A DNA stretch of 64,000 bases from a virus (IMGVR_UViG_2974690805_000001:5472-69471); one strand, 5' to 3'. Numbered from the stretch's first letter, positions 3,317-63,972 are shown. The notes: generated by a model from the letters alone, not told the origin. Numbers and translations: made by a program.

Positions 3317-3386
3317 TTCTGCCTTCCTCGGCGGGTCTATCCCGCCTCACACAGACGAAGTTACCCGACGGCGTCGCACTTGTCAA
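3317..3386 (-). promoter_or_regulatory. repeat promoter-hairpin-RBS element, copy 1
   Basis: TTGACA-17-TAACTT, CGACGCCGTCG in spacer, GGCGGG-ATAGA-CCCGCC hairpin, GAGGAAGG. Confidence 0.92.
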
Positions 3387-3410
3387 CACCGCCGGGCAAT
3401 CCGCGTCAGA

Positions 3411-3740
3411 TCAGCACCAGACGACCTCGGCGCTGTGGGCGACGGCCCACTCGGCGAGTTCGTGCAACTCGCGCAGCCGTTCCTGCAAGTAGCCGGGGCG
3501 ACGAGCGCCCTCGACCATACGAGCGCCGGGGCCGACGTGCTCGTAAGACGGCATACCTTCGTCGCTCGGCGCGAGGGCGAGCGCCATGACGACGCGGCCC
3601 ATGAAGTCATCGGCGGTCGCCGAGCCGCACCAGCCGTCGGCGTCGAGGTCGATGCCGAGCGCATCGGCGACGAGCGCGGCGTTGCGGTTGCTCATGTTGA
3701 CGTCGAGGTCGGTGCCGTCGGCGTAGAAGGTGACGCTCAT
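3411..3740 (-). CDS. hypothetical protein (cassette gene 2)
   Basis: 109 aa ORF downstream of repeat promoter. Confidence 0.8.
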   Translation of the reverse strand: MSVTFYADGTDLDVNMSNRNAALVADALGIDLDADGWCGSATADDFMGRVVMALALAPSDEGMPSYEHVGPGARMVEGARRPGYLQERLRELHELAEWAVAHSAEVVWC

Positions 3741-3814
3741 GATGTGGCTCGCTTTCCGGCGGGTCCATCCCGCCTCACACGAACGAAGTTACCCGACGCT
3801 GTCGCAGTTGTCAA
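3741..3814 (-). promoter_or_regulatory. repeat promoter element, copy 2
   Basis: -35 at 3809-3814, -10 at 3786-3791, hairpin 3758-3774. Confidence 0.92.
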
Positions 3815-3941
3815 CACGTCGGCGCAAACTGCTTTGCACGGTGCTCGCCTACTGTTCGACAGCAGATAGCGACCGACTGGCTGCGGGCCGGGTAGCGATC
3901 GACCGAACTGACAACCGTTCGACCGAGACAAGGAGTCCGAA

Positions 3942-5699
3942 GTGGACCCGTTCCAGATGCCGGAAACGCTTCCAGCGACCGCCGCGGAACTGAGCGCACT
4001 GCTCGACGCGGCCCGCGCCAACATCGCCGAGTACCAGCGCCGCCACGGCGCGGGCGAGGAACTGACGGGCGACGACGTCGCTGCGCTGCGTTCCCTGCTC
4101 GGCGACGTCGACACGCTCAACTCGGCTCTGGCCGAGGCCGTGACCGCCGAGCAGAGCCACACCGACGAGATCGGTGATCTGCTGAGCCGTGCCGCTGCCG
4201 CGACCGACACCACGCCCGGCGAGGGCGACGGTGACGGCGACGGCGGTGACGAAGGCGACGGCGACGGCGGCGACGAGGGCCAGCCGGAAGGCCAGCCCGA
4301 GGGCCAGCCGTCCGAGCAGGCTCGCCAGACCGTGACCGCGGGTGCGCCGAGTAACGGCACCCGTCGCCCGGTGACCTTCGCCGGGGCCGGGGCCGACAGC
4401 CCGCCGCCGCCTGCCGAGCAGGGGCCGGGCTGGCAGATGCACCCGACCGCGCCCGGCTACCGCGAGGACATGGGCCGGGTCGGCTTCCGCGAGATCGCGC
4501 TGAGCCTCGACTCGGTGCGGCCCGGCTCGCGCTCGATGCGTCGGCCCAACCGCGCCCCGCGCAAGCTCGGCGGTGTCGAGTACGCCCGGCAGGTCGTGTC
4601 GACCCTCGACCGCGGTGTTGAGGAAGTCGAGGACGCGCACGCGCTCGTCGCGGCGATCACCGAGCAGACTCGGCCCGATCGTCTGACCGAGCCGACCTTC
4701 AACGACCGCGGGTCGCTGACGGCGGCTGGCGGCTGGTGCGCACCGTCCGAGCAGCTTTACGACTTCTGCGACGTGCCGGATGCGACCGATCTGATCTCGC
4801 TGCCCGAGATCACGATCAACCGCGGCGGCGTGCGGTGGCCGGTCGAGCCTGATCTGTCGGGCATCTACGAGGACTTTGAGTGGTTCTTCACCGAGCCGGA
4901 ACTTGAAGCCGTCGACCCGGTGACCGGCGAGCCGACCGCGGTGAAGACCTGCGTCGAGGTTCCGTGCCCTGACGAGTTTGAGGAAATTCGCCTCAACGCC
5001 GTCGGCTGGTGCGTCGAGGCGGGCATCCTGCAAGAGCAGGGCTGGCCCGAACTGATCGAGTGGTTCATGCGGTCGCTGACGCAGGAACACCTGCGGGCGC
5101 TGAGCCGCCGCACGATCCTCGACATGGAAGCGGGCAGCGGCACGCCGATCGTCATCCCGCCGCAGTCGGTGCTCGGCTCGGTGCCGAGCGTGCTCAACTC
5201 GCTGGCGCTCATGGCGACGAACCTGCGGCTCAACCGCGGTCTGTCGCGCACGGCGACCATCGAGGGCGTCGCGCCGTCGTGGTTCCATGAGGTGCTGCGG
5301 GCCGACATCGCGATGCGCGAAGGCACCGATGTCTTCGCCGTCACCGACGCGCAGATCAACGGCTGGCTCGCGGCCCGCAACATCGCGTTGCAGTTCGTGG
5401 GCGACTGGCAGACCCGCGGTGCCGGTCTGCCGGGCAACCTCGCCACGGTGCGGTGGCCCGAGACGGTGCGCGTGCTGCTCTACCCGGCGGGCACTTGGTT
5501 CCGCTCGATGAGCAACGTCATCGAACTCGGCGTCATGTACCCGAAGGAACAGTTGCAGGTGAACCGCTTCACCCGCATGTTCACCGAGGACGCGATCGCG
5601 GTCGGCAAGCGGTGCGGCAACAGCATCGCCGTCGACATCCCGCTCAACGTCTCGGGTGCCGTGGGCGAGCGGGTCGCTGCTACAAATCAGGTTGCGTAA
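3942..5699 (+). CDS. major capsid (hexamer) protein
   Basis: 585 aa, AGGAG RBS; N-terminal scaffold-like low-complexity region then LTAAGGWCAPSE..YDFC motif typical of this actinophage capsid family. Confidence 0.85.
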   Translation: MDPFQMPETLPATAAELSALLDAARANIAEYQRRHGAGEELTGDDVAALRSLLGDVDTLNSALAEAVTAEQSHTDEIGDLLSRAAAATDTTPGEGDGDGDGGDEGDGDGGDEGQPEGQPEGQPSEQARQTVTAGAPSNGTRRPVTFAGAGADSPPPPAEQGPGWQMHPTAPGYREDMGRVGFREIALSLDSVRPGSRSMRRPNRAPRKLGGVEYARQVVSTLDRGVEEVEDAHALVAAITEQTRPDRLTEPTFNDRGSLTAAGGWCAPSEQLYDFCDVPDATDLISLPEITINRGGVRWPVEPDLSGIYEDFEWFFTEPELEAVDPVTGEPTAVKTCVEVPCPDEFEEIRLNAVGWCVEAGILQEQGWPELIEWFMRSLTQEHLRALSRRTILDMEAGSGTPIVIPPQSVLGSVPSVLNSLALMATNLRLNRGLSRTATIEGVAPSWFHEVLRADIAMREGTDVFAVTDAQINGWLAARNIALQFVGDWQTRGAGLPGNLATVRWPETVRVLLYPAGTWFRSMSNVIELGVMYPKEQLQVNRFTRMFTEDAIAVGKRCGNSIAVDIPLNVSGAVGERVAATNQVA

Positions 5700-5789
5700 C
5701 CCGCAGCAGGCAGACTGATAGGCGGGCGTCGTGGGCAGGCCAACACAGCCCGCGCCGCCCGCCTTATCAGTTCGATCGGAAGGGACACG

Positions 5790-6572
5790 ATGACCGCACC
5801 AGTGCTCGCGGCGGTGAACTTCACCGCACCGCGGCAAAACCCGGCGATCCCCGGCCTGTTCGCAGTCACCAACTGGCAGCCCGTCGGCGAAGCCGCTCGT
5901 CACCTCAACGGCGTCGAGATCAGGGGTGAGAACTACGGCGGCGAGGGCGCTGCGGGCGTCTGGGAAGCCGACTGGTGCGCCCCGCCTGATCCGGCGACGG
6001 TCACCGAGCGCAAGGAAGGCGAGCGGCCCGACATCGCCGACGTCTTCGACCCGATCGTCGTCTGGGCGTTCGATCAGTGCGATCTGACCCGCCCCTCGCA
6101 GGCCGAGGTGCGGGCGCGGGCCGCGCAGATTCTGCGCCTTGAGGAACAGTCGCTGATCGAGCGCGAGTTCGCCGAGCGGCTCAAGGCCGACGTGACCGAG
6201 GTCTTCGGCACCGCCGAGACGGCGGCGAACCTCAAGCTCGCGATCGGCTACATCGAGGGCGTGCTCGCGCAGACCAACACGCTCGGCTATATCCACATCG
6301 GCGCTCAGTGGGTCAGCCAAGAGTCGGGGCTGTTCACGAAGTCGGGCGCGAAGTACGTCAGCCCGCTCGGGCACACCTACGTCATCGGCGGCGGCTACAC
6401 CGACGGCCTCGATGACCTGATCGTCGCGACGTCGCCGACGTTCGGCTGGCGCAGCGAGCCTGCTGTTCGCGAGGCGCTCGATGAGCGTCACAATCAGTTC
6501 GTTGCCGTCGCTGAGCGTAGCGTCGTCATCGGTTACGAGGCGATCGTCGCCGCTGTCCAGATCACCGCATAA
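5790..6572 (+). CDS. major capsid pentamer protein
   Basis: 260 aa directly after the hexamer gene, GAAGGGA RBS; family resemblance. Confidence 0.7.
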   Translation: MTAPVLAAVNFTAPRQNPAIPGLFAVTNWQPVGEAARHLNGVEIRGENYGGEGAAGVWEADWCAPPDPATVTERKEGERPDIADVFDPIVVWAFDQCDLTRPSQAEVRARAAQILRLEEQSLIEREFAERLKADVTEVFGTAETAANLKLAIGYIEGVLAQTNTLGYIHIGAQWVSQESGLFTKSGAKYVSPLGHTYVIGGGYTDGLDDLIVATSPTFGWRSEPAVREALDERHNQFVAVAERSVVIGYEAIVAAVQITA

Positions 6573-6585
6573 GGGAGACACGAAG

Positions 6586-9573: not shown

Positions 9574-9924
9574 TCAGACCGAGCGGGCGAACTTCACGCC
9601 CTTGACGAACGCCATGAGTTCGCGCCGGGCGGCGACGACGCCCTCAAGCGAGCCGGTCGCCCAATAGCCGATGCAGTCGTCGGAAGTGCCGACGCGACCG
9701 GGATGAGGCAGGTACACCGACCAACGGCAATCGCTCAAATCCCAACCGTTTGCGCCGAGCTTGCCGTTGCCGATGTAGCCGACGGTGACCTTGCGGCTGT
9801 GGTCGGCGTCGGTCAGGCCGAGCAGTGCGTTGAGTTCGGCGACCTCGGCCTTGAGCAGTTCTTCCTGACGGGCGAAGGCGGCGGCGATGTCGGCGTCGGT
9901 GCGGGTGCGGGTCGTGGCGGTCAT
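9574..9924 (-). CDS. hypothetical protein (cassette gene 3)
   Basis: 116 aa ORF downstream of repeat promoter. Confidence 0.8.
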   Translation of the reverse strand: MTATTRTRTDADIAAAFARQEELLKAEVAELNALLGLTDADHSRKVTVGYIGNGKLGANGWDLSDCRWSVYLPHPGRVGTSDDCIGYWATGSLEGVVAARRELMAFVKGVKFARSV

Positions 9925-31280: not shown

Positions 31281-31490
31281 CTACTGCGCCCGCGGGCCGT
31301 GCCAGCCGCGACCGGGGCGCGAAGCAATCCACGCCTCGACCGTCTCGGGCAGCCAGCCGCGCTTACCGCCGACCTCGGCGTCGTGGGGCGGCAACTGGCT
31401 GTGATCGAGCGAGCGGCGCGACTTGAGGCCGAGGCGCTCGGCGATCTGGCTCGCGCTCATGTAGATCGCGACCTGTCGTGGCTGCGTCAT
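31281..31490 (-). CDS. excisionase/AlpA-like HTH DNA-binding protein
   Basis: YMSASQIAERLGL...LPPHDAEVGGKRGWLPETVEAW; GAAAGG RBS. Confidence 0.75.
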   Translation of the reverse strand: MTQPRQVAIYMSASQIAERLGLKSRRSLDHSQLPPHDAEVGGKRGWLPETVEAWIASRPGRGWHGPRAQ

Positions 31491-31867
31491 GCTGACCTTT
31501 CGTTCGGCTGTTCCCCGACAAGGGTAAGTGATGCGGGTGCGTTCGCGATGACGACGGCGCGGCGGGCGATCGAGCGTTCCCACTCGCGACGCGGGTCGGT
31601 GTCGACGGTGATCGTCGGGCCGTCGCCGCCGGGCCAAGTCTCGATCGTCTCGATCAGGTGGTCGACCTTGTCATCGAACTCGGCGACGACCTTCTCGATC
31701 GAGTCGATCAGGCCGGGCGGGCACTGGTCGACGCTGTTCTCGACGCGCTGGTAGCTGCGGCGGTCCATCCCGAGGCGCTTCGCCATACCGCGCTGCGACA
31801 GACCGAGGTAGGCGCGGTGCGCCGCGATCAGTTCGCCGTAGCCGTCGGCGTAGGTTGCGGGCTTCAT
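31487..31867 (-). CDS. XRE-family HTH DNA-binding protein
   Basis: HRAYLGLSQRGMAKRLGMDRRSYQRVE. Confidence 0.8.
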   Translation of the reverse strand: MKPATYADGYGELIAAHRAYLGLSQRGMAKRLGMDRRSYQRVENSVDQCPPGLIDSIEKVVAEFDDKVDHLIETIETWPGGDGPTITVDTDPRREWERSIARRAVVIANAPASLTLVGEQPNERSA

Positions 31868-31943: not shown

Positions 31944-32756
31944 TCACCAGCCGACCTTGCGGGCGCAGACCGGGCCGATGCCGCGCTCGCGGCTGTCATC
32001 GTTGGTCAACTGCCGACCGCAGATGCCGCACTCGCCGATCTCGTGACCGTAGCGGGCGCTCGCGGCCTCGGCACCGACCTCGGCGATCCGGTCGATGATC
32101 TTGTGACCCTGCGCCTTGCCGAGGCGCTGCTCGTCGTCGCCGACGATGTGCTTGACGAAGACGAAGCCTGCCCACTTGCCCGACTCGGGGCGGTCGACCC
32201 GGTAGAAGGCGACCTCGTTGATCGCGCCCTCGGCGGTGTCGATCGCGTAGCGACCGGCGGGCACCTCGTCGCTGCGGTAGCTGGTGACCTCGGGCGCAGC
32301 CGCGGCGGCGATCTTGTCGATCGCCTCGCTGCGATCGAACGCCGCCTCGACCTCGCGAGCCTGCGACTTGAAGGGCTGCGCGGCCAGCCACTCGATCAGC
32401 TTCGACGCGCCCTGCTTGGTCAGCACCGCGTAGGCGAACTCGTAGCCGGGGCGGGCATCGGCGACGAGCAGGGCGAGCACCCGGTTGACCCGAACGCCGA
32501 GGTCGGCGTCGTCGGCGACGGCGGCACGAAGCGCGGCGTTGTCGGCGGGCACCGGAATCTCGCCGGTCACGAAGGCGAAGACGACGTGCAGCGCGGCGAC
32601 GCGGCTGACGTACTTCGGCTGATCGGCGACGTTCGCGTCGCTGTTCCAAGCGCGGTCGCGGATCATCGGCACGATCGCCCGCTCGATCTGAGCGGCGGTC
32701 GCGGGCGTGACGAACTGGTCAGCGGCCTCGGGCTGGTGCATGAACGGAGTTCCCAT
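31944..32756 (-). CDS. hypothetical protein with C-terminal DUF6011-like zinc motif (cassette gene 4)
   Basis: CGICGRQLTNDDSRERGIGPVC; ATG 32756 follows GAGGAAGG of repeat element. Confidence 0.75.
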   Translation of the reverse strand: MGTPFMHQPEAADQFVTPATAAQIERAIVPMIRDRAWNSDANVADQPKYVSRVAALHVVFAFVTGEIPVPADNAALRAAVADDADLGVRVNRVLALLVADARPGYEFAYAVLTKQGASKLIEWLAAQPFKSQAREVEAAFDRSEAIDKIAAAAAPEVTSYRSDEVPAGRYAIDTAEGAINEVAFYRVDRPESGKWAGFVFVKHIVGDDEQRLGKAQGHKIIDRIAEVGAEAASARYGHEIGECGICGRQLTNDDSRERGIGPVCARKVGW

Positions 32757-32826
32757 TTCTACCTTCCTCGGCGGGTCCATCCCGCCTCACACGAACGAAG
32801 TTACCCGACGCCGTCGGTAATGTCAA
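32757..32826 (-). promoter_or_regulatory. repeat promoter element, copy 4
   Basis: -35 at 32821-32826, CGACGGCGTCG, hairpin 32770-32786. Confidence 0.92.
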
Positions 32827-40949: not shown

Positions 40950-41062
40950 GGCCCTGTCTCTCGGTGGTCGTGGTGCGTGTGAGTGTGAGTGTTGGTGTGC
41001 CAGTCGCTCGGGGTCGCCGAGCGACCGGCAGCACCTACGTTAGCCGACGGTGTCGGACTTGT

Positions 41063-41518
41063 CTACTGCGACTTCTGCGGTGCCTTCGACTGGTCGAGCT
41101 TGACGACGCCGAGCATGTCGCGGTGGCCCTCGATGAAGCCCGTCTCGGCCAGCACGCGCCGGATGTCGGGCGGCTTCCAGCCCTCGGGCTTGAGAATCTT
41201 GCCGTCGTCGCGGCGGGCCACGGTGCCGTCCTCGCCGATCTTGGCGAGGTTCGACCGGAACACCTCGCGGCACACCTCGCGGGCGGCGTCCTCGCCGAAG
41301 TAGGCGAGCAGCGTGCCGTAGGCGATCACGATCATGTCGGCCAGCCCGTCGGCGATCTCGACCGGGTCGTCGCGATCTTCGCCGTCGAAGTATTCCTCGA
41401 CTTCCTCGGCGAGCAGGTTGCGACGCAGCTTGCGCAGGTCGAGATCGCTCAGCCCGTTCGCGAACGTCTGCCCGCTGGCGGTCATGAAGTCGGCGGTTGC
41501 GTCGAGGATGTTGGTCAT
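41063..41518 (-). CDS. MazG-like nucleotide pyrophosphohydrolase
   Basis: EEVEE..EIADGLAD..SNLAK..GKILKP. Confidence 0.8.
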   Translation of the reverse strand: MTNILDATADFMTASGQTFANGLSDLDLRKLRRNLLAEEVEEYFDGEDRDDPVEIADGLADMIVIAYGTLLAYFGEDAAREVCREVFRSNLAKIGEDGTVARRDDGKILKPEGWKPPDIRRVLAETGFIEGHRDMLGVVKLDQSKAPQKSQ

Positions 41519-48733: not shown

Positions 48734-49156
48734 TCAGCGCGGCAGCCGGATGATCACGCCCTGCGGGCCGGTGATCGTGCCGTCGGCGTTGAGCGTGTAG
48801 TCGGGCGATCCGCCCGCGGCGACCCACGACCGAAGCTCATCGAAGACGTCGGTCGGCAGTTCGGGGCCGCAGTTGCGGTCGCCCATCGTGGCGCAGTTCC
48901 AGCCCGGCTCGTCTTCCTCGATGCGCGGCGGCGGGCCGAGCATCAGGTCGTAGACGCTGGCCGGTTGCCACTCGGCGCGGTCGGTGCCGGTGATCGCCTC
49001 GGCGTACTCGGCGAAGTCGAACGGCTCGCCCGACGCGGCGGGCATCGGCACGGCGATGTCGTCGGGTGCCGCGGCGTCGCATCCGACGATCGCATAGCCG
49101 ATGCCGCAGCCGAGCACGACCGCCCCTGCGAGGACGGCAAGCGGTGTTCTGGTCAT
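48734..49156 (-). CDS. exported/membrane-anchored hypothetical protein
   Basis: N-terminal hydrophobic segment; IEEDEPGWNCATMGDRNCG motif. Confidence 0.7.
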   Translation of the reverse strand: MTRTPLAVLAGAVVLGCGIGYAIVGCDAAAPDDIAVPMPAASGEPFDFAEYAEAITGTDRAEWQPASVYDLMLGPPPRIEEDEPGWNCATMGDRNCGPELPTDVFDELRSWVAAGGSPDYTLNADGTITGPQGVIIRLPR

Positions 49157-49235
49157 GATTCCCCTTCGTGGTTGTGCGGCGGGTCGATCCCGCCTACGGG
49201 TAACCAAAGTAACCGACGCTGTCGGGTCAGCGCAA
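49157..49235 (-). promoter_or_regulatory. degenerate repeat promoter element (hybrid copy)
   Basis: Keeps CGACAGCGTCG and GGCGGG-ATCGA-CCCGCC; altered -35/-10; gains GGTTACC and CACAACCACGAAGG. Confidence 0.7.
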
Positions 49236-49520
49236 CTGCCGCTGCTCGGGCGAGTTATCCGACGAGGGTCGGCGAACACCCGAACGTGCCCACACCTGCC
49301 CTCGCGACATCTGCGCGAGCAGCGTCAGGCGGCGGGCCAGACCGTAGTCGAGGTCGGCCAGCAGCGAGTCCCACTCGCCCCGGCGTTGCAGTTCCTCGAC
49401 CATGAGCACGATGCGGGCGACGTCGATGTTCGCAGCGCCGGGCACCGCGGCGCAGAAGCCGAGCACCAGTGCGATCGAGGCGGTCGACTGCGCGGTCAGG
49501 TCGGGGCTGTCGGTGGTCAT
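49227..49520 (-). CDS. hypothetical protein
   Basis: ATG 49520 with TAGGGT 7 nt upstream. Confidence 0.55.
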   Translation of the reverse strand: MTTDSPDLTAQSTASIALVLGFCAAVPGAANIDVARIVLMVEELQRRGEWDSLLADLDYGLARRLTLLAQMSRGQVWARSGVRRPSSDNSPEQRQLR

Positions 49521-49612
49521 GCGGGTAACCCTACACCGGGTATCCCGGCTCGGTCGGCCTCGCGTGCGCGGGCGCGGGATTATTCCCCTCGGATGCCGTG
49601 ACATTCTAGGGA

Positions 49613-49630
49613 ATGTGATACAGATCACAT
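49613..49630. promoter_or_regulatory. CRP/GlxR-type palindromic site
   Basis: ATGTGA-TACAGA-TCACAT; matches TGTGA-N6-TCACA exactly. Confidence 0.6.
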
Positions 49631-49646
49631 CAGGTTGTGAACTACC

Positions 49647-49676
49647 TTGTCGTGGTCTTGACAGGGTCGATAAGAT
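49647..49676 (+). promoter_or_regulatory. putative rightward promoter
   Basis: TTGTCG-N18-TAAGAT in divergent intergenic region. Confidence 0.4.
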
Positions 49677-49858
49677 CGGCTCGCGACCGAAGCCGATCAT
49701 TATCGCGACCCCTGATCAATCCCCCGACGGCCTCGCTGATGCTCGGCGAGTGAGAGTGTGGGCGAGGCTAATCTGATTGCGGTCGTGGGCCGCATCAACG
49801 CGCTGCTGGCACCCGCCCTACGGGGCGGGCACCCGGCGCACCGATAGCGCCGGTGACG

Positions 49859-49895
49859 GGTAACCCGTAGCGAGGTGACCTACGACGAGGTAACC
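49859..49895. repeat. GGT(A/G)ACC heptads at 15-bp spacing
   Basis: Copies at 49859, 49874, 49889. Confidence 0.75.
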
Positions 49896-49902
49896 TGTTC
49901 TC

Positions 49903-50661
49903 ATGTCCCACGGTATGAAGTCCCGACGCTCACGGCCTCGCACGCCCGAGGTGCCGCCCGATGTCGAGCACATCGACACGACACTGGCCGACTACGCCGT
50001 GCGCATCCGCAAGCAGACCGACGGCCTGATGATGTTCGATGATGTTGTGCTCGCGCTGGCCGTGGCCCGCGAGAAGCAGCGGCAGATCAAGGAACTGCGT
50101 GCAGCCGCTCACGCCCGCTGCAAGGCGCTGGCCGAGCGCGGGGCTGCGGGTGCCGGGCCGTATCGCTTCGTGACGACGGTGCGCACGACGACCAAGACGG
50201 CGGTGCCGAGCGAGAAGCTCAAGGCCGCGCACCCGAAGCTGTGGGCTGCGGCTCGGGTCCGTGTCCCGTATGTGGCGGTGAAGCCGCCGAAGGACGTCGA
50301 CCTTCCGGTGACGCTGCCGCGGCTGCCGGTCTGTGGTCGGCTCGCGCCGCCCGAGCAGGCGGCGGCGATCTACCTCGACCCGGCCTATAAGAACTCGTTG
50401 GCGCTGGTCAAGGAAGACATCGAAGACGCGAAGGCGGTGCTCAACGAGATCGCCGACCGCATCGAGTGGGACGGTCACGCGCTGCATTTCGCCGACGGCT
50501 GGCGAGTTACGACCTCGACGCTGCGGTATGAGTCCGACATGCTCGCCGTCATCGCGCCTGATGTTTTCGACGCGCTCGCCGAGAAGCGCACGACCGAGTC
50601 GGAGACGCTGCGCATCGTGCTCGGCGAGTTCGACCCCGAGGGCGACATCGAGGCCGACTGA
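49903..50661 (+). CDS. hypothetical protein
   Basis: 252 aa; internally duplicated TT.RY/FES.KL/ML...P motif. Confidence 0.75.
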   Translation: MSHGMKSRRSRPRTPEVPPDVEHIDTTLADYAVRIRKQTDGLMMFDDVVLALAVAREKQRQIKELRAAAHARCKALAERGAAGAGPYRFVTTVRTTTKTAVPSEKLKAAHPKLWAAARVRVPYVAVKPPKDVDLPVTLPRLPVCGRLAPPEQAAAIYLDPAYKNSLALVKEDIEDAKAVLNEIADRIEWDGHALHFADGWRVTTSTLRYESDMLAVIAPDVFDALAEKRTTESETLRIVLGEFDPEGDIEAD

Positions 50662-50662
50662 T

Positions 50663-50725
50663 GGTTACCTGCGAGGTAACCCGGCGATGGTAATACAGGT
50701 AACCCATAGGGTAACCTCGGTGACT
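50663..50725. repeat. GGT(A/T)ACC heptad array
   Basis: Copies at 50663, 50675, 50698, 50710; partial at 50689, 50719. Confidence 0.8.
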
Positions 50726-50995
50726 ATGGCGACCCATACCAGCGCGGGCGACCGCGCAGTGCTCACGAAGCCCGAGCCGACCCCTCGGATGCGCGGGCCG
50801 GTCAAGGGGCTGATCCCGGTCAAAGGCACCGCTGAGCAGCACCGACGGCTCAAGGTGGCGGCTGCCGAGGAAGGCATGACCTACATCGAGTTGATCGAGG
50901 CGCTGCTCGACATCCGCGAGGAACGCATCGAGCGGCGGCGGCGACAACAGCCCTCGCCGCTGCACCGACCAGCAGACGAGGCGGCGAACGCGTGA
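50726..50995 (+). CDS. ribbon-helix-helix-like DNA-binding protein
   Basis: GLIPVKGTAEQHRRLKVAAAEEGMTYIELIEALL: beta strand, helix, G-x-T/S turn, helix. Confidence 0.7.
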   Translation: MATHTSAGDRAVLTKPEPTPRMRGPVKGLIPVKGTAEQHRRLKVAAAEEGMTYIELIEALLDIREERIERRRRQQPSPLHRPADEAANA

Positions 50996-51789: not shown

Positions 51790-52054
51790 CGGCTTTACAC
51801 CGATGCTCGGCCCCGAGCCGCAGCAGATCATCGCCCTGCGTGACGCGCTGGCCGAGTGGACCGATACACCCGAGTCGGTCGGCCCGCTGACGGCGAGGCT
51901 GGTCGACGCTGCGGTCGATGTGCTCGCAGAATGGGATCGAGGCCGGGCAGCGACGGCGCTGGCGATGCGCGAGGCGATGCGCACCACGATCAGCGAGCAC
52001 GCGCTGCGCAACCTGCGCGAGTTCCCCGGCCTCGGGAAGGACGACCAGCCATGA
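51779..52054 (+). CDS. hypothetical protein
   Basis: GGAAGG RBS. Confidence 0.65.
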   Translation: MPADGFTPMLGPEPQQIIALRDALAEWTDTPESVGPLTARLVDAAVDVLAEWDRGRAATALAMREAMRTTISEHALRNLREFPGLGKDDQP

Positions 52055-52791
52055 GCACCGCAGCGGTCGACCCGTTCGATGACCACGGTCAAGGCGAGGA
52101 CGAAGACGACTACTTGGCGCAGCGCCGGGCGCAGGTGATGCTGCTCAAGCACTCGGGCGGCACCTACACCGAGATCGCCCGCGTGCTCGGCATCAGCACG
52201 ACCACGGTGCGGCGCGACTACTTCATCGCGCTGCGCGAGCAGCGGATGCTCAGCGCCGAAGACCGGGCAGCCCGGCAGGTCGCGATCCTCGGCGACATCT
52301 GCAAGGCGAACTACTCGGCGATGCTGACCGGCGACAAAGACGCCGCGATCACGATCATCAAGGCGCTAGAACGTGAGGCCAAGCTGTTCGGCCTCGACGC
52401 GCCGACGCGACTGATCGCAGGTGTGTCGAGCGAGCAGTTCGCCACCGAGGCGCACGACCTGATCAACAAGATCATCAAGCTCGACCCGACCGCGCTACAC
52501 GAGATTGAGGGGCCACGACATGCCGCACGACCCGACACCGATCATCATCGGATCGTTGACGCCGAGGTCGAAGACGACCTCGCTGCCGGGCACGCCCCGG
52601 CCATTCCCGAAGGTGCGGTCGATCCGTACTGGCGCGATCCTTGGGCCGTCGACCCCGCCGAGCCATACGGCTTCGATGGCACCGAGGCCGATCCGCAACT
52701 CTGGCAGCGTGCTCAGCGCGATCAGCGACCTGCTGCGCCGGTTGAGGAAGACGAAGCCGACGACCTCGACGGCTGGTCAAACATCGGCTGA
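52051..52791 (+). CDS. HTH protein, terminase small subunit-like
   Basis: GGTYTEIARVLGISTTTV; GDKDAA..LEREAKLFGLDAP. Confidence 0.65.
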   Translation: MSTAAVDPFDDHGQGEDEDDYLAQRRAQVMLLKHSGGTYTEIARVLGISTTTVRRDYFIALREQRMLSAEDRAARQVAILGDICKANYSAMLTGDKDAAITIIKALEREAKLFGLDAPTRLIAGVSSEQFATEAHDLINKIIKLDPTALHEIEGPRHAARPDTDHHRIVDAEVEDDLAAGHAPAIPEGAVDPYWRDPWAVDPAEPYGFDGTEADPQLWQRAQRDQRPAAPVEEDEADDLDGWSNIG

Positions 52792-56153: not shown

Positions 56154-56366
56154 TCAGTTGACGGCGCGGCCCGTCTCGTCGCGGATGACGTAGGTGTAGC
56201 TCGCCTGCGCGACGCGCCCGCAGCGCACGGTCAGCGTGCGGTCGGTGATGCCGTAGGCGCGACCGAAGCGGGCATCGAGGTCGGCGCGGGCCGCGGCCTC
56301 GTCGGCGTGCTCGGTGACGACGGTGCCCGCGGGATTGCCGATCGGGCTGACGGTCAGAGTGTGCAT
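56154..56366 (-). CDS. hypothetical protein (cassette gene)
   Basis: 70 aa downstream of repeat element. Confidence 0.75.
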   Translation of the reverse strand: MHTLTVSPIGNPAGTVVTEHADEAAARADLDARFGRAYGITDRTLTVRCGRVAQASYTYVIRDETGRAVN

Positions 56367-56437
56367 GATTCTCGCTTTCCGGCGGGTCGATCCCGCCTCA
56401 CACGAACGAAGTTACCCGACTGCGCCGCATTAGTCAA
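56367..56437 (-). promoter_or_regulatory. repeat promoter element, copy 5
   Basis: TTGACT -35 at 56432-56437; hairpin 56381-56397. Confidence 0.9.
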
Positions 56438-56449
56438 GCCGGGCCAGAA

Positions 56450-56490
56450 ACGAGAAACGCCCCGCTGGCGGCGGGGCGGGGCGTTCTCGT
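56450..56490. terminator. intrinsic terminator
   Basis: acgagaaacgcccc...ggggcgttctcgt. Confidence 0.7.
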
Positions 56491-56495: not shown

Positions 56496-56696
56496 TCAGA
56501 TGATCGCTCGACCGTTGTGCTCGATGTTCCACTCGATCGTGGCGGTGAGATCGGCGCGGGCGGCGTCCTCGGTGGGGCCGTATCCGAGCGTCGCAGCACC
56601 TCCGCGGCCTCGCAGGGTCGCACGGTAGCGGCTGTTCGCCGGGCAGAAGTGATCGAAGTCGATCTCAGCGGTCGCGGCAAGCTCGATAGCAGTCAT
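56496..56696 (-). CDS. hypothetical protein (cassette gene)
   Basis: ATG 56696 after GAGAAGG. Confidence 0.75.
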   Translation of the reverse strand: MTAIELAATAEIDFDHFCPANSRYRATLRGRGGAATLGYGPTEDAARADLTATIEWNIEHNGRAII

Positions 56697-56784
56697 GGTG
56701 ACCTTCTCTCTGTAGTTTTCAACTTCGGCGGGTTGCTTCCCGCCTGACACAGATAAAGTTACCCGACAGCGTCGTAGTTGTCAA
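56697..56784 (-). promoter_or_regulatory. repeat promoter element, copy 6
   Basis: -35 at 56779-56784; 6-nt hairpin loop; longer leader. Confidence 0.88.
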
Positions 56785-56815
56785 CACGACAGCAGAAATT
56801 GGCCGAACGCGCTGG

Positions 56816-56905
56816 TCAGCGCCCCGGCGGCTCGATGACGAGCAGCAACTCGGCGAGCAGAATGAGCGCGACGATCAGAGCACCGAGGGCGATCGCCGCG
56901 ATCAC
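56816..56905 (-). CDS. very small membrane peptide
   Basis: IAAIALGALIVALILLAELLLV; start uncertain. Confidence 0.45.
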   Translation of the reverse strand: MIAAIALGALIVALILLAELLLVIEPPGR

Positions 56906-56907
56906 GG

Positions 56908-57240
56908 CTAGCTCGGTGTCCTGCGGCCCTTGCGACCGCTGTGTTTGGAAGCGGGCAGCCGTCGGTATCGCACCTTCGGCCCGCCCTTGGTCTTGTGCGC
57001 CTTCTCGCGTGCCCACGGCTGGCCGCTGGCGAACGCCCATTTCCACTGCTTTTTGCTCTTGAAGCCCCGGTAGCCGCCCCGGCGACCGAACGCCCCGACG
57101 CCGGTATGCCGCCCGACGCCGCCGGTCGAGGCGCTCAGCGCGACGGCGCTGCCGCGGCGCTGCGCGATCCTCGGTGACGACTTCGCCAGACCTCGGCGGG
57201 TGCCTCGGCGGGTCGATCCCCGCCCGCGTGATCGTGCCAT
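56908..57240 (-). CDS. very basic hypothetical protein
   Basis: GFKSKKQWKWAFASGQPWAREKAH core; Arg/Lys/Gly-rich. Confidence 0.6.
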   Translation of the reverse strand: MARSRGRGSTRRGTRRGLAKSSPRIAQRRGSAVALSASTGGVGRHTGVGAFGRRGGYRGFKSKKQWKWAFASGQPWAREKAHKTKGGPKVRYRRLPASKHSGRKGRRTPS

Positions 57241-57270
57241 GACACTAGGTCTACCCGCCCGGTGTGCGTG

Positions 57271-57684
57271 CTACCCGACAGGCGGTCGAAGCTCGCGCTC
57301 AAGGCGGCTCATCGCCCGCCCGAGGGCTGCCCGGCGGGCCGTCTCGGCTTTGTCGCACATCGGGTAGCCGGGCATGTTCCTGACCACGGTGTAGAAGTCG
57401 CGCCCGATCGTGCGGGCGACCTCAAAGTAGCTCGCGCCGTCATCGAGCAGCGGCTTCGCGATCGCGGTGTCGGCCTCGGTCCACGGTCGGGCGACATGCC
57501 GCCTCGGCGGCTCGATGCCCTCGCGTCGTAGACCGCGGCGCACCGTCTCGACGGCGACGTCGAGCTTGAGCGCGATCGCGTCGATCGAGTGGCCGTGCCC
57601 GAACAACTCGACCATCTGCTCGCGGCGCTCGGCGGCGCGGCGCATCTGCTCGACGTTGGCCTTCCTGATCGTCTCGACGGTCAT
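57271..57684 (-). CDS. double-HTH DNA-binding protein
   Basis: GHSIDAIALKLDVAVETVRR and GASYFEVARTIGR. Confidence 0.75.
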   Translation of the reverse strand: MTVETIRKANVEQMRRAAERREQMVELFGHGHSIDAIALKLDVAVETVRRGLRREGIEPPRRHVARPWTEADTAIAKPLLDDGASYFEVARTIGRDFYTVVRNMPGYPMCDKAETARRAALGRAMSRLERELRPPVG

Positions 57685-57989
57685 GCTGCTGCCTTCTCTC
57701 GATTGAGGCGCACGACCTCGACCGTGCGCCGCTGGCCTTGCCGACAACTGCACAACAGGCAGTGCGGCGCGATGTTGTCGCGGCAGTAGGTGCCGCCGCG
57801 CTCGCCGGGGATGATCCGGTCGGCGACGAGGTCTTCGTACTCGCAGAGCACGCCGCAGTCCCAGCACGGCACCGTCTCGCCGTCGCCGCCCCAACCGGCC
57901 CGAACGCTCAACAGCCAGAGCTTGCGCGAGCGCCGGTCGTAGCTCGACCCGCGCTCGGCGCTGTTGCACCGGCCCGAGGTGCTGCTCAC
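57681..57989 (-). CDS. HNH endonuclease
   Basis: CWDCG..ADRIIPG..GGTY..DNIAPHCLLC. Confidence 0.75.
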   Translation of the reverse strand: MSSTSGRCNSAERGSSYDRRSRKLWLLSVRAGWGGDGETVPCWDCGVLCEYEDLVADRIIPGERGGTYCRDNIAPHCLLCSCRQGQRRTVEVVRLNREKAAA

Positions 57990-60143: not shown

Positions 60144-60386
60144 TCAGATCGTCTTGTGCGGGAAGGTGAACAGGCAGGTTCCGGTGTAGTCGGGGCCGGT
60201 GTAGCGGCTGGTGACGCCGCGGCGCTCGATCTCGTCGGTGACCTTGAAGTAGGACGTGACCCCGGTGCGCTTGCGCTCGGTCGCGTAGACGAGGCTGATC
60301 TGCGCGAGCACCTCGTCGTGCGTGACGGTCTGGCCCGCGAAGACGGCCATGACGTTGTCGGCGGCGACGGCGGTGATCTGGCTCAT
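60144..60386 (-). CDS. hypothetical protein (cassette gene)
   Basis: Downstream of repeat element. Confidence 0.75.
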   Translation of the reverse strand: MSQITAVAADNVMAVFAGQTVTHDEVLAQISLVYATERKRTGVTSYFKVTDEIERRGVTSRYTGPDYTGTCLFTFPHKTI

Positions 60387-60457
60387 GATTCTCGCTTCCC
60401 GGCGGGTCTTTCCCGCCTCACATGAATTAAGTTACCCGACCGAGTCGCACTTGTCAA
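60387..60457 (-). promoter_or_regulatory. repeat promoter element, copy 7
   Basis: -35 at 60452-60457. Confidence 0.92.
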
Positions 60458-60475: not shown

Positions 60476-60727
60476 TCAGATGTCGAAGGCCAGCGCCCCG
60501 GCGAGGTGGTCGAAGAAATGCAGGACGTCGCCGTTGCGGAAGTCGATCCTGACGAGGGTCGACTTGATCGCGGCCTGCTCGGTCTTCGGCGCGGTCTTGA
60601 TCGCGTCGAGCACGTTGCCGAGCGCGATGCTGTTCTCGGTGCCCTGCGGGCCGAACTTCGTGAAGCGCACCTCGCGGTCGAGTCCCTTCTCATCGACCAG
60701 CGTGTCGAGCCACTTTGCGAACGTCAT
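60476..60727 (-). CDS. hypothetical protein (cassette gene)
   Basis: MTFAKWLDTLVDEKGLD. Confidence 0.8.
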   Translation of the reverse strand: MTFAKWLDTLVDEKGLDREVRFTKFGPQGTENSIALGNVLDAIKTAPKTEQAAIKSTLVRIDFRNGDVLHFFDHLAGALAFDI

Positions 60728-60797
60728 TTCTGCCTTCCCCGGCGGGTCGATCCCGCCTCACACGAACGAAGTTACCCGACTGCGTCGGGCTTGTCAA
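60728..60797 (-). promoter_or_regulatory. repeat promoter element, copy 8
   Basis: -35 at 60792-60797. Confidence 0.92.
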
Positions 60798-61254: not shown

Positions 61255-61568
61255 CGAGCCGCCGCCTCGACCGGGATCAGGCGCGGGTCGTAGCCCCACT
61301 GATCGTCGGTGATGCGGTACTGCACGCCGTCGACCTCGATGACGTCGCCCTCGGCGACGTTGTGGTCGGCGGCGGGCTTGCCGAGGTCGCCGTACTCGCG
61401 GGCTTGGATCACCGTCGGCACCGCCGACAGCATCGCGCCCTCGTTGGGGAACACCCGCACGACGTAGGGCTGATGCGGGCTGTACTGCTGGTGCCGGAAC
61501 GCGCCGCGCAGCGTGACATCCTCGGCCCCGCGGTAGTAGCCCTTGTCGGTAGTGGTGATGCTGATCAT
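61251..61568 (-). CDS. hypothetical protein (cassette gene)
   Basis: ATG 61568 after repeat element. Confidence 0.75.
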   Translation of the reverse strand: MISITTTDKGYYRGAEDVTLRGAFRHQQYSPHQPYVVRVFPNEGAMLSAVPTVIQAREYGDLGKPAADHNVAEGDVIEVDGVQYRITDDQWGYDPRLIPVEAAAR

Positions 61569-61643
61569 GGCCTTCGGCCCCTTCCCGGCGGGTATTTCCC
61601 GCCTCACACGAATGAAGTTACCCGACTGCGTCGGCTTTGTCAA
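61569..61643 (-). promoter_or_regulatory. repeat promoter element, copy 9
   Basis: -35 at 61638-61643. Confidence 0.92.
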
Positions 61644-61644
61644 C

Positions 61645-61677: not shown

Positions 61678-61689
61678 GGCCGAACGCGA

Positions 61690-62061
61690 TCAGTAGTTGC
61701 GCTTCGGCTCGTTGAACGCTTCCTCGACCTTCATCAGGGCGTCGAGGTGCGGCTGCGTGTCGCGCAGGTGGTTCCAGTGCGCCTCGGACTCGCGCACCTG
61801 CCGCTTGAAGCTGCGCTCGATCGGGCCGTCGAGCCGGTCGAGGATCGCGGGCACCGTCTCGCCGGTCGTCTCGGCGATCGCGGCGAGGCACTTCTCGATG
61901 CCCTTGACCCACTCGCCCGCGCTCGGGTGCTCGGGGCCGTACCAGCGCAGCGACACCGACTCGCGCATGATGACCCGCTCGGCACTCTTGACGGTACGAA
62001 CGTCGCCGTAGTCGACGCGGATAGGACTGACCAGCTTGACGGTTCCGGTGCTCTTGCTCAT
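61690..62061 (-). CDS. hypothetical protein (cassette gene)
   Basis: ATG 62061 after GAGGAAGG. Confidence 0.8.
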   Translation of the reverse strand: MSKSTGTVKLVSPIRVDYGDVRTVKSAERVIMRESVSLRWYGPEHPSAGEWVKGIEKCLAAIAETTGETVPAILDRLDGPIERSFKRQVRESEAHWNHLRDTQPHLDALMKVEEAFNEPKRNY

Positions 62062-62132
62062 TTCTGCCTTCCTCGGCGGGTCCATCCCGCCTCAACACAG
62101 ACGAAGTTACCCGACTGCGTCGCACTTGTCAA
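62062..62132 (-). promoter_or_regulatory. repeat promoter element, copy 10
   Basis: -35 at 62127-62132. Confidence 0.92.
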
Positions 62133-62508: not shown

Positions 62509-62870
62509 GGCTCGATCACCTCAAACTCGCGCCGGAACAGGCACAGCCGCTTGCCGTAGGCGAACAGGATGCAGTAGGTGCCCGAGGTCGGCGTCAGGCC
62601 GGGCAGAACGGCGGTGATCTGGCCGCGCCGCCCGTCAGCAACCACGACGTCGCCGCGGAACGCCTCGCAGGTCTTGCCGCCGCCGTCGGCGAGGCGGGCG
62701 TCGATCGCCGCCTGCGCGGCCTGCTGGCCGTCCCACTTCGCGTCGCGGTGACTCGGCCCCTCGACGCCGGGGCCGCTGACGGTCCAGAACTTGCCGGATA
62801 GCTCGCTGCGCTTCACGGTGTACGGCCCGGCCAGATATGCACCCGTCTGCGGGTGCCGCTTCCACTTCAT
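62505..62870 (-). CDS. hypothetical protein
   Basis: ATGA overlap. Confidence 0.7.
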   Translation of the reverse strand: MKWKRHPQTGAYLAGPYTVKRSELSGKFWTVSGPGVEGPSHRDAKWDGQQAAQAAIDARLADGGGKTCEAFRGDVVVADGRRGQITAVLPGLTPTSGTYCILFAYGKRLCLFRREFEVIEP

Positions 62871-63037
62871 CGAACAACCTCAATCTCGGCCTCGGGCCGG
62901 TAGTGGGACATGCCGCCTTCGGTGAAGACGGTCGTGTAGTGCGTGCGACCGCCGGGGATGACGATCGTCACGACCTTCCCGGCGAGCACGTCGCCGGGCA
63001 GGACATCATCGGCTCGCACGATGACCGGGGCGCTCAT
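62867..63037 (-). CDS. hypothetical protein
   Basis: ADDVLPGDVL, SH3-like start. Confidence 0.65.
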   Translation of the reverse strand: MSAPVIVRADDVLPGDVLAGKVVTIVIPGGRTHYTTVFTEGGMSHYRPEAEIEVVR

Positions 63038-63264
63038 CGCGCACCGGCCTTCGCATGAGCCTCGGCGAGGGCGGCGTCGACCCACAGCGACGCATCGGCC
63101 CACCGCTGAGCCTCGGCGTCGAGGGCCGTCTCGCCGCAGCGCAGCGCCTCGGCCTCGGCGATCGCCTCGCGCTCAAGGCGGCAGTAGTAGCCATTGCAGT
63201 GCGGCTGCAACTCGCCGAGTTCGGCGCAGATGTGGTAGTCGTCGGCGGCGGGGTCGTAGGCCAT
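63034..63264 (-). CDS. hypothetical Cys/His protein (cassette gene)
   Basis: Downstream of repeat element. Confidence 0.75.
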   Translation of the reverse strand: MAYDPAADDYHICAELGELQPHCNGYYCRLEREAIAEAEALRCGETALDAEAQRWADASLWVDAALAEAHAKAGAR

Positions 63265-63338
63265 GATCTCGATCCTTCCTCGGCGGGTCCATCCCGCCTC
63301 ACACGAACTAATTTACCCGACTGCGTCGCACTTGTCAA
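63265..63338 (-). promoter_or_regulatory. repeat promoter element, copy 11
   Basis: -35 at 63333-63338; -10 TAAATT. Confidence 0.92.
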
Positions 63339-63347
63339 GCGGGCCGG

Positions 63348-63551
63348 TCAGCACCGCTCGGCCTGCGCGATCGCGTCGCGAGCGGCGGCGAGCAGTTCGT
63401 CGCACACCTCGGGCGTGTCGGTGAACAACTCGGCGCGGTCGAGCATGTCGCTCGCGTAGGCGAGCAGGCGCTCGCGCCGATCGGCCAACTGCACGCGAGC
63501 CTCGGCGGCGTTGCGGGCGGTCAGGCGGGGGAGGGCGAGCGTGGCGGTCAT
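63348..63551 (-). CDS. hypothetical protein (cassette gene)
   Basis: Downstream of repeat element. Confidence 0.75.
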   Translation of the reverse strand: MTATLALPRLTARNAAEARVQLADRRERLLAYASDMLDRAELFTDTPEVCDELLAAARDAIAQAERC

Positions 63552-63622
63552 GGTGACCCCTTTCCGGCGGGTATTTCCCGCCTCACATGAATTAAGTTAC
63601 CCGACGGCGTCGTAGTTGTCAA
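63552..63622 (-). promoter_or_regulatory. repeat promoter element, copy 12
   Basis: -35 at 63617-63622. Confidence 0.92.
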
Positions 63623-63643
63623 GCGACGCCGCCGGGCCGGTCG

Positions 63644-63901
63644 TCAGGCGCTCAGAAGCTGCTCGGCCTCGTAGATCGTCAGCAGCGCCTGCGCCTCGAT
63701 CTTGCCCTCGCGCAGCGTGTGCGCGTAGGTCTGGCCGATGACCCGGCGGTCGCCGATGATCTGGCCGTCGAGCTTGTGCGACACGAAGATGTGCCAGTCG
63801 AGATAGCCCGAGGCTTCCTCGATCTTGTCGATCTCGATGTGGTAGTCGGTGGTGTCGCCGACGTAGCTGCCCTTGCTGACCTTGCGGTAGGTGACCTTCA
63901 T
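63644..63901 (-). CDS. hypothetical protein (cassette gene)
   Basis: Downstream of repeat element. Confidence 0.75.
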   Translation of the reverse strand: MKVTYRKVSKGSYVGDTTDYHIEIDKIEEASGYLDWHIFVSHKLDGQIIGDRRVIGQTYAHTLREGKIEAQALLTIYEAEQLLSA

Positions 63902-63972
63902 GATTCTCGCTTCCCGGCGGGTACTTCCCGCCTCACACAGACGAAGTTACCCGACGCTGTCGTAGTTGTCAA
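63902..63972 (-). promoter_or_regulatory. repeat promoter element, copy 13
   Basis: -35 at 63967-63972. Confidence 0.92.

Follow-up and report, generated by a model that had tools for sequence, protein, structure and literature searches.

A Repeated Promoter and Leader-Hairpin Module as the Probable Standard Early Start Signal of Cluster B Mycobacteriophages

Introduction

Repeated units that combine a promoter with a conserved leader are known from T4-type phages and from Cluster K mycobacteriophages. The promoter-early stem-loop (PeSL) cassettes of T4-type phages are repeated units in which an early promoter of the host sigma-70 type is joined to a G/C stem-loop lying within or beside it, a Shine-Dalgarno sequence, and a start codon (Arbiol et al. 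2010, PMC2839356; Comeau et al. 2014, PMC4122927). They stand mostly before small genes of unknown function or ORFans, a few copies lying within conserved modules, and indel and replacement junctions between close relatives are located in the motif. Their stem-loops vary in sequence and position and have been shown to terminate transcription. In Cluster K, the repeated ESAS combines a SigA-like promoter and an inverted repeat, and it is accompanied by a start-associated sequence, or SAS (Pope et al. 2011, PMC3203893; Freeman et al. 2024, PMC11373665). This SAS motif, 13 bp of the form GGG...CCC, contains the RBS; many internal gene starts that lack a promoter have it as well, and little support for an SAS RNA hairpin was reported by the same authors (PMC3203893, PMC11373665). 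Other mycobacteriophage repeats include the 17-bp dyad repeats of Cluster O, a cluster that also has SigA-like promoters (Cresawn et al. 2015, PMC4351075), and the stoperators of Cluster A (PMC9262239). Morons, promoter-gene-terminator inserts, are a further relevant concept (cited in PMC3029335).

Cluster B is the second largest sequenced mycobacteriophage group, with more than 350 genomes (PMC9262239), and its transcription signals are apparently uncharted. The window analyzed here is a 64-kb stretch of DNA out of a 69.5-kb lytic Cluster B (Bclasvirinae) mycobacteriophage relative. A sequence-only reading of this window had proposed a genome-wide family of expression cassettes that lets the phage capture and exchange small genes.

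Anatomy of the Module

A module of about 70 bases heads 13 leftward gene units, and one further copy is degenerate. All lie on the minus strand and end at a start codon, and the positions given by the sequence-only reading (3317, 3741, 9925, 32757, 56367, 56697, 60387, 60728, 61569, 62062, 63265, 63552, and 63902, with the degenerate copy at 49157) each fall one base upstream of an ATG. The copies and associated features are as follows.

3314-3386, minus strand: c01, with promoter, palindrome, leader hairpin (3330-3346), RBS, and ATG of a 79-aa ORF (3080-3316)
3738-3814, minus strand: c02, before a 109-aa ORF (3414-3740)
3028-3070, minus strand: GC-rich hairpin at the end of the c02-c01 unit, in the sequence past the stop codons
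9922-9994, minus strand: c03, before a 116-aa ORF (9577-9924, phrog_1556), between the major tail and head-tail adaptor genes
32754-32826, minus strand: c04, before a conserved operon for a DUF6011 protein, an XRE HTH protein, an Xis-like HTH protein, and a small membrane protein
31284-31867, minus strand: two DNA-binding genes under c04, XRE/434-Cro-like HTH (31490-31867) and a 69-aa Xis/HTH_17-like protein (31284-31490)
41037-41065, minus strand: partial copy (TAGACA, palindrome, TAACGT) without the leader hairpin, upstream of a 562-aa helicase-like ORF
49154-49234, minus strand: c14d, the degenerate copy (28.3 bits), with palindrome and exact hairpin retained and -35/-10 weakened, before a long leftward replication operon
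56364-56437, minus strand: c05 (TTGACT, one palindrome mismatch), 70-aa ORF, then a GC hairpin
56694-56784, minus strand: c06 (6-nt loop, longer leader), 66-aa ORF, then an intrinsic-terminator-like site (56458-56478)
60384-60457, minus strand: c07, before an 80-aa ORF (phrog_16846) and more small genes to about 57986
60725-60797, minus strand: c08, 83-aa ORF (phrog_6004), best match of the family model
61566-61643, minus strand: c09, 105-aa ORF
62059-62132, minus strand: c10, 123-aa ORF, then a GC hairpin
63262-63338, minus strand: c11 (-10 TAAATT), before a four-gene unit (76, 121, 69, and 57 aa)
63549-63622, minus strand: c12, 67-aa ORF
63899-63972, minus strand: c13, 85-aa ORF, the final copy ahead of the window and record end

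The proposed anatomy holds, with the parts in the order -35, 17-bp spacer with an inverted repeat, TANNNT-type -10, hairpin, purine-rich RBS, and ATG. Among the 13 full copies, the -35 is exactly TTGACA in 12 and TTGACT in one, the spacer is always 17 bp, and the -10 is TAACTT in 12 and TAAATT in one; GGG precedes TAACTT. The minus strand contains 11 exact matches to TTGACA-N15-19-TAACTT, compared with 0.00 expected from 100 shuffles, and when mismatches in the palindrome/-10 block are tolerated, two more copies (56409-56437 and 63310-63338) and the degenerate one (49206-49224) appear. A promoter-only copy lies beyond the window (genome positions 3233-3261). Module edges are sharp in the alignment, where conservation stops upstream of the -35 and beyond the ATG. 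Hexamers and 17-bp spacing agree with the mycobacterial SigA pattern in 13/13 copies. Because TAACTT agrees with the E. coli -10 consensus at just three of six positions and is missed by a generic promoter scanner, promoter strength rests on the mycobacterial TANNNT rule.

The spacer repeat had been read as a palindromic operator. It is a strict CGAC-N3-GTCG palindrome in this genome only, whereas the cluster keeps just CCCG-N7-CGGG. The absence of a true palindrome in B1 and in several Saguaro copies weakens the dimeric-operator reading. In addition, the right half of the repeat overlaps the extended -10, and its conservation may come from polymerase contact alone.

In terms of conservation, the leader hairpin stands out. 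The exact inverted repeat GGCGGG-N5(6)-CCCGCC is present in all 14 copies, 11 nt past the -10 (12 in c10; 10-12 in other copies and genomes), and it is the most conserved part of the module, with a stem that is invariant in 81 distinct copies while the loop, the spacer centre, and the initial transcribed bases vary. Its six pairs are 100% paired in those 81 copies with no two-sided changes; with zero covariation the RNA fold remains a prediction, and the invariance argues neither way. The predicted fold, at -11.1 kcal/mol, keeps the RBS free of pairing in almost every predicted leader. Conservation of the first loop base is not matched on the symmetric side, which favors reading as single-stranded RNA. 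In this genome the hairpin always follows a promoter copy and never precedes the internal genes of multi-gene units, and this confinement, together with the fixed distance, fits a role at the transcript 5′ end. Saguaro has hairpin-plus-RBS copies without a recognizable promoter. The 6-bp stem is followed by a purine-rich tract without a T-run, and Rfam gave no matches at gathering score over the entire window.

Genes and Units under the Module

The modules open ORFs of 66-270 aa, and the earlier claim that the downstream genes are mutually unrelated is borne out by the 14 first-gene proteins, which have no significant mutual similarity (blastp, best E 0.36). Some module-headed units run antisense within the late structural operon. 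The c02-c01 pair forms a leftward insert of two cassettes that separates the protease/MuF and capsid genes, where Saguaro and OSmaximus have other content, and it has the makeup of a moron in that a promoter-gene-terminator unit is inserted between genes adjacent in relatives. GC-rich hairpins resembling that at 3028-3070 also lie 3′ of the c03, c04, c05, c06, and c10 genes, so these units appear to be self-contained from promoter to terminator; a strict T-run terminator scan was passed by the c06 site only. At the c13-c12-c11, c08-c07, and c02-c01 successions, the module directly follows the preceding stop codon without a separate terminator. The c03 gene is homologous to OSmaximus gp27, which occupies a different slot, and a Cluster A phage has a further homologue in an operon that lacks the module, indicating that transfer between clusters does not keep gene and module together.

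The HTH operon under c04 is kept in 8/8 Cluster B genomes. Its XRE protein matches Pfam HTH_31 (1.1e-6) and 434-type structures in the PDB, and together with the Xis/HTH_17-like protein it is a candidate trans-factor that might bind the module. A sigma-region-4-like protein is encoded at 52051-52788.

Distribution

By blastn, the module is found in 311 phage records, 310 of which are Mycobacterium phages and one of which is a Gordonia record. With a covariance model, each of eight Cluster B genomes yields about 6-13 full copies. Separate counts are 90 matches across nine genome types and 7-20 matches per genome. The module was absent from the Mycobacterium genomes searched, and no match in other bacterial genomes rose above chance level. 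All relatives examined have the module before different genes, which marks it as a lineage-wide standard unit, probably for early expression. Its downstream genes are mostly lineage-specific and mutually unrelated, and they differ in identity, number, and position among relatives. The sequence-only reading had named just this pairing of a conserved element with variable genes as support for its proposal.

Function of the Module

The repeat is probably the standard module for starting early transcription and translation in Cluster B (Bclasvirinae), in which a sigma-A promoter is joined to a uniform 5′ leader. SigA-containing host RNA polymerase would recognize TTGACA, the 17-bp spacer, and the GGG-preceded TAACTT and start about 7-8 nt further on. 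The transcript would then begin with 4-6 free bases, followed by a 6-bp G:C hairpin (GGCGGG, 5-nt loop, CCCGCC), the unpaired purine-rich RBS, and the ATG. The module stands before short, often terminator-closed leftward units of small nonstructural genes and also before the conserved two-HTH operon. At the mRNA 5′ end, the hairpin would most likely serve as a stabilizer and as an insulator that keeps the RBS free. Because its sequence is invariant, the stem is probably also read by a protein in a sequence-specific manner, and the inverted repeat in the spacer likely serves as an operator by which early units are shut off.

It is possible, though not the favored view, that the repeat is mainly a regulon of protein-binding sites. 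The spacer CCCG-N7-CGGG and the GGCGGG-N5-CCCGCC at +5 to +21 would be DNA operators through which the XRE/Xis-like products of the c04 operon or the sigma-region-4-like protein switch off the early units, and the RNA fold would be incidental. A stem without compensatory change in 81 copies, a fixed distance to the promoter, and lineage-specific spacer variants are consistent with this idea, as is the autoregulatory layout in which two of the conserved HTH genes lie under the module itself. The asymmetry of the first loop base and of the B1 spacer sites argues against it. This reading is compatible with the early start module and does not exclude it.

A more speculative combination, which we consider doubtful, treats the hairpin as a recognition tag. 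A conserved Cluster B HTH protein (XRE-type, Xis-type, or sigma-region-4-like) would read GGCGGG/CCCGCC both as DNA past the start site and as RNA by the RBS, switching off (or protecting) the dozen-unit early regulon at both levels, and the 57-bp core, TTGACA through CCCGCC, would also supply portable homology for exchanging cassettes. Aca2-type dual control offers a parallel: there an autoregulator of the HTH type recognizes both an inverted repeat in the promoter and an RNA stem-loop at the RBS; here an XRE HTH gene lies under one module. If true, the module would be a genome-wide version of the control of a single acr-aca2 operon and the first PeSL-type system in actinophages.

Gene capture and exchange through the repeats had been the central proposal of the sequence-only reading. 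Its strongest form is unlikely; in that form the module is selected mainly for capturing and shuffling genes, its promoter-hairpin core supplies portable homology, and the small-gene regions owe their plasticity to exchange among copies. Three B1 or B-type loci do have gene swaps or deletions with junctions at the -35 hexamer, within the hairpin, or immediately past it, and the Carthage core differs from its neighbours exactly from TTGACA to CCCGCC. The same slot can hold different genes and the same gene can occupy different slots. Copies are also mosaic and evolve in concert. Distance is 0.217 within genomes versus 0.314 between genomes (permutation p < 0.0005), orthologous-slot copies are nearer their own paralogues in 5/5 lineages, and blocks are shared in violation of the tree, as with one 12-nt RBS-ATG block behind three different initial transcribed sequences. 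Recombination among copies is expected because about a dozen near-identical 60-bp copies share one genome. However, among close relatives just 6 of 39 replacement or indel events fall within 110 bp of a module versus 3.45 expected, which is not significant; the predicted synteny breaks occur exactly on the module in some cases but are not significantly enriched there. Many swaps fall at plain gene junctions, the c03 family does without the module in Cluster A, and selection on random recombinants would likewise leave junctions at functional borders. The lack of significant enrichment makes gene exchange between repeats an occasional event rather than the main route, and recombination between copies is real but secondary. 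For the early start module as well, copies are homogenized per lineage, and occasionally one of them becomes the junction for replacing or deleting a first gene.

Similarly improbable is a purely translational role, in which the hairpin is a start-associated signal like the SAS or an Aca2-like RNA target that tunes or represses translation instead of stabilizing mRNA. The hairpin adjoins the RBS in every copy, its sequence is invariant, and some Saguaro copies with hairpin and RBS lack a recognizable promoter, but it never precedes internal operon genes in this genome and the RBS is predicted to be free, not sequestered. Finally, a role in attenuating or terminating transcription that runs in from the preceding unit, one demonstrated for PeSL stem-loops, would suit the modules that abut a previous stop codon but is very unlikely given the short stem, the purine-rich tract in place of a T-run, and the separate, longer GC hairpins of units that need insulation.

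The early start module would mark the early transcription units of every Cluster B member and would correct several annotated start codons. Judged by its sequence, it offers mycobacterial genetics a compact, apparently strong promoter-plus-leader, and the invariant hairpin would be a clean handle on how phage early mRNAs are stabilized or controlled in mycobacteria. The junction cases and the hundreds of near-identical Cluster B genomes form a natural data set for asking whether regulatory repeats guide mosaic exchange outside T4-type phages.

Comparison with Known Systems

The kind of element described here is known from T4 PeSLs and Cluster K ESAS/SAS, so the suggestion that it was new to actinophages does not stand at that level; the Cluster B sequence family, which a full-text literature search did not find described, seems to be undescribed. 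With PeSLs the module shares its composite makeup, its placement mostly before small uncharacterized genes, a few copies lying within conserved modules, and junctions located in the motif. It differs in sequence, host, and phage lineage, in that significant breakpoint enrichment was not found, and in a hairpin that is invariant, always past the start site, and without a T-run. Matches confined to Mycobacterium phages and one Gordonia record make it an analogue of PeSLs, not a member.

With Cluster K, the likeness lies in SigA-like hexamers 17-18 bp apart, an imperfect inverted repeat, a conserved sequence ending a few bases before the ATG, and retention across subclusters before genes of different families. 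The resemblance to the roughly 47-bp ESAS (SigA-like hexamers plus imperfect inverted repeat) is one of architecture only, with unrelated sequences. SAS membership was rejected: the 13-bp consensus 3-9 bp before the start is absent, and the leader consists of the GGCGGG/CCCGCC hairpin and varied RBS blocks. Here the conserved leader is a perfect predicted hairpin tied to a promoter. Cluster K phages are temperate, whereas Cluster B phages are lytic.

The hairpin also recalls the 5′-terminal stem-loops that stabilize mRNA, such as the E. coli ompA leader and the 5′ stabilizers of B. subtilis and phage SP82, which act through structure and tolerate sequence change. Both have a stable hairpin a few bases from the (predicted) 5′ end followed by a free RBS, but the Cluster B stem sequence is frozen. 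Cluster O repeats and Cluster A stoperators are likewise many short regulatory repeats across a mycobacteriophage genome, and the Cluster O dyad has a free 3-bp centre. However, the Cluster O repeats lie outside promoters and often within genes, and stoperators belong to temperate phages, where they are asymmetric sites through which a repressor acts on elongation. Regarding morons, c01/c02 and c03 form leftward inserts complete in themselves, set between structural genes which in relatives either adjoin or enclose something else. A classical moron comes with signals of its own, unrelated to those of other morons, whereas the Cluster B units have one standard module in common.

The module in the window

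A search for the promoter core, TTGACA-N15-19-TAACTT, of the module (a −35, a spacer inverted repeat, a −10, a leader hairpin, a ribosome-binding site (RBS), and an ATG) gave 11 exact matches in the window and none in 100 shuffles, and permitting mismatches recovered 13 full copies (c01-c13) together with a degenerate copy, c14d (49154-49234, minus strand), that heads the leftward replication operon. The 13 plus one minus-strand copies described in the sequence-only reading are thereby borne out, as is its claim that each copy abuts the start codon of a different, unrelated gene: the ATG ending every copy (14/14) opens an ORF of 66-270 aa, and the 14 first-gene proteins are mutually unrelated. 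When the window copies are aligned, the conserved block begins at the −35 and ends at the ATG. All 14 copies contain an exact GGCGGG-N5(6)-CCCGCC repeat located 11 nt past the −10 (12 in c10), and the folded leader hairpin has a predicted energy of −11.1 kcal/mol with the RBS left unpaired. This hairpin was found in the window genome solely behind promoter copies, with none before internal operon genes. GC-rich hairpins also close six module-headed units, one of which passes a strict terminator scan. Two further copies are incomplete:

Outside the window, same record: promoter-only module copy
41037-41065: partial module copy without the hairpin

Pfam and PHROGs assigned no functions to the cassette genes except for DUF6011 at the C-terminus of the c04 protein. 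The degenerate copy adjoins a large divergent intergenic region with GGT(A/T)ACC heptads (49199-50995). A GGTTACC overlaps the predicted c14d start site, which suggests that a second control layer may act on the replication operon.

The phage and its relatives

The window covers bases 5472-69471 of a virus record 69,471 bp long. Its portal/MuF protein is 65% identical to the Saguaro protein (Mycobacterium phage) and 58-60% identical to the proteins of B1-type phages, and the closest nucleotide matches are the B5-type phages Acadian, Baee, and Rich, at about 77% over one fifth of the structural arm. No close relative was found in the phage collection searched. The gene order is the same as in Saguaro and the B1 phage OSmaximus:

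Part 1, rightward with a few leftward inserts: structural genes
Part 2, leftward, preceding the lysins: DUF6011/HTH operon
Part 3, leftward: long replication operon
Part 4, rightward: one block
Part 5, leftward: small genes of the right end

Because of these matches and this shared order, the phage is placed as a separate lineage within Cluster B (Bclasvirinae), a lytic group.

Distribution of the module

With an 81-bp module copy as the query, matches turned up at 1,694 places, spread over 311 phage records; Mycobacterium phages account for 310 of these records. A profile built from the 13 window copies, the scan of related phages that had been suggested as a check, found 13 full copies in OSmaximus (two on the opposite strand) and about six in Saguaro; the module is conserved in these relatives while the downstream genes differ. 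When 31 copies were used to build a covariance model, it gave 7-20 matches per genome in five additional IMG/VR genomes of Cluster B, and a scan of nine genome types gave 90 matches. Scans of IMG/VR and metagenomes restrict the module to Cluster B genomes and a small number of short contigs from the environment, and Rfam holds no family that matches it. Judged by these scans, the module belongs to the whole of Cluster B. An origin in the host or a prophage was rejected: prokaryote genomes amounting to 596 Gb yielded 11 scattered single matches (estimated to be about chance level) and none in Mycobacterium. Two of the environmental contigs, a metagenome virus contig of 8,045 bp (L017) and a contig of 2,051 bp (L069), hold 3-8 copies on both strands, a higher density than in any isolate genome.

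Conservation within the module

Comparison of copies across the cluster shows GAC conserved in the −35, CCCG-N7-CGGG in the spacer, GGGTAA(C/G)TT around the −10, and GT(C/G)AG preceding the hairpin. The strict CGAC-N3-GTCG spacer palindrome of the proposed consensus is peculiar to the window genome, and the B1 spacer sites are asymmetric. The loop, the spacer center, the initial transcribed bases, and the RBS blocks vary. No part of the module is more conserved than the hairpin stem: its five inner pairs are invariant, and 79 of 80 distinct copies have G:C as the outer pair. The first base of the loop is likewise conserved, without a symmetric partner. A covariation test returned zero covariation, the stem sequence not varying, so sequence alone cannot prove the RNA fold. 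Even so, 12 stem positions have stayed frozen in lineages that share only 40-60% identity in their core proteins, which argues for sequence-specific reading of the stem and not for stability alone.

Two other candidate features were rejected. The TGTGA upstream of the hairpin is only half of a CRP site and reads TGTCA in B1. The GGCGGGG...CCCGCC repeat at 57207-57224, considered as a hairpin-only relic of the module, lies inside a very Arg/Gly-rich ORF of 110 aa (56908-57240, minus strand), and about one such match is estimated to occur by chance at this G+C content. Few confident ORFs are found at 56785-57985; a protein with two HTH-like repeats (57271-57700) lies upstream of the Arg/Gly-rich ORF.

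Genes behind the module

Homologues in OSmaximus or Saguaro were found for just two of the 14 genes that directly follow a module copy. In each of the eight genomes compared, the DUF6011 operon occupies the same slot and is headed by a module; it also contains XRE/434-type and Xis-like HTH genes. In the window these two lie at 31490-31867 and 31284-31490, and their B1 homologues are gp46 and gp45. The c03 product is 60% identical to OSmaximus gp27, a gene that occupies a different slot and is also module-headed in about 296 B1 genomes, and Echild, a Cluster A phage, has a c03 homologue within an operon that carries no module. The slot that separates the major tail gene from the adaptor gene holds different module-headed genes in three lineages (the window phage, OSmaximus, and Saguaro), and c02 and c01 together form an insert when the window is compared with either Saguaro or OSmaximus. 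A module-headed B1 unit (L030:15568-17007, OSmaximus gp19-gp21) includes a queuine tRNA-ribosyltransferase (DpdA-like) gene; the deazaguanine genes of Saguaro are instead at the left end, another relocated function within Cluster B.

The annotated start codons of OSmaximus gp21, gp27, gp48, gp96, and gp102 (sequences L030 and L031) fall inside the promoter or hairpin. The conserved RBS-ATG past the hairpin is the likelier true start of each, and the module could therefore serve to correct start codons across Cluster B.

The family annotated as "RNase E" in Cluster B (window 52051-52788, plus strand; L031:23095-23802 in OSmaximus; Saguaro gp66) combines an HTH_23/sigma-70 region-4-like DNA-binding domain with an acidic tail of low complexity behind it, and a search of its domains detected no nuclease; the B1 homologue is gp70. 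The annotation looks spurious, and the family is probably a transcription factor. The idea that the hairpin shields phage mRNA against a phage-encoded RNase E was dropped on these grounds.

Recombination at the module

Comparison of seven B1 right arms shows different, unrelated first genes behind the last module, with identical flanks; divergence starts in the hairpin loop or just past the stem, and the distal junction lies directly after the stop codon. In the B1 phage Carthage, the first gene behind this module is absent, and a different core version, whose limits are exactly TTGACA and CCCGCC, is fused to the leader of the next gene. In three related 71-kb genomes an ORF is missing or has been replaced, and the change spans exactly the stretch from the upstream stop codon to the −35 hexamer. 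The window copies are themselves mosaic: one 12-nt RBS-ATG block follows three distinct initial transcribed sequences, and the converse also occurs. Copies are closer within genomes than between them (distance 0.217 vs 0.314, p < 0.0005), and copies in orthologous slots are closer to their own paralogues than to their orthologues in 5/5 lineages. Four pairs of close genomes yielded 39 replacement or indel events, of which six fell within 110 bp of a module versus 3.45 expected, a difference that is not significant. Other right-arm swaps occurred at plain gene junctions. Both results oppose a dominant role for recombination.

Proposed mechanism and known systems

We infer that the module is a SigA early promoter joined to a standard 5′ leader, its activity, timing, and start site being predictions. 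The spacer repeat would probably be bound as an operator, and the frozen hairpin would probably be read by a protein as a 5′ stabilizer or insulator. Recombination between copies does take place, as a by-product that now and then mediates the replacement of a gene.

Full-text literature searches turned up no account of the Cluster B element, although older reviews may mention it. The earlier statement that this element was not known to be described for actinophages needs correcting as to kind: the ESAS and SAS of Cluster K (PMC3203893, PMC11373665), which are unrelated in sequence, already represent it. The PeSLs of T4-type phages (PMC2839356, PMC4122927) are likewise the same kind of element without sequence membership. 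The repeats of Cluster O (PMC4351075) and the stoperators of Cluster A (PMC9262239) are conceptually more distant, also without sequence membership. What sets the Cluster B module apart from all four is its invariant leader hairpin tied to the promoter.
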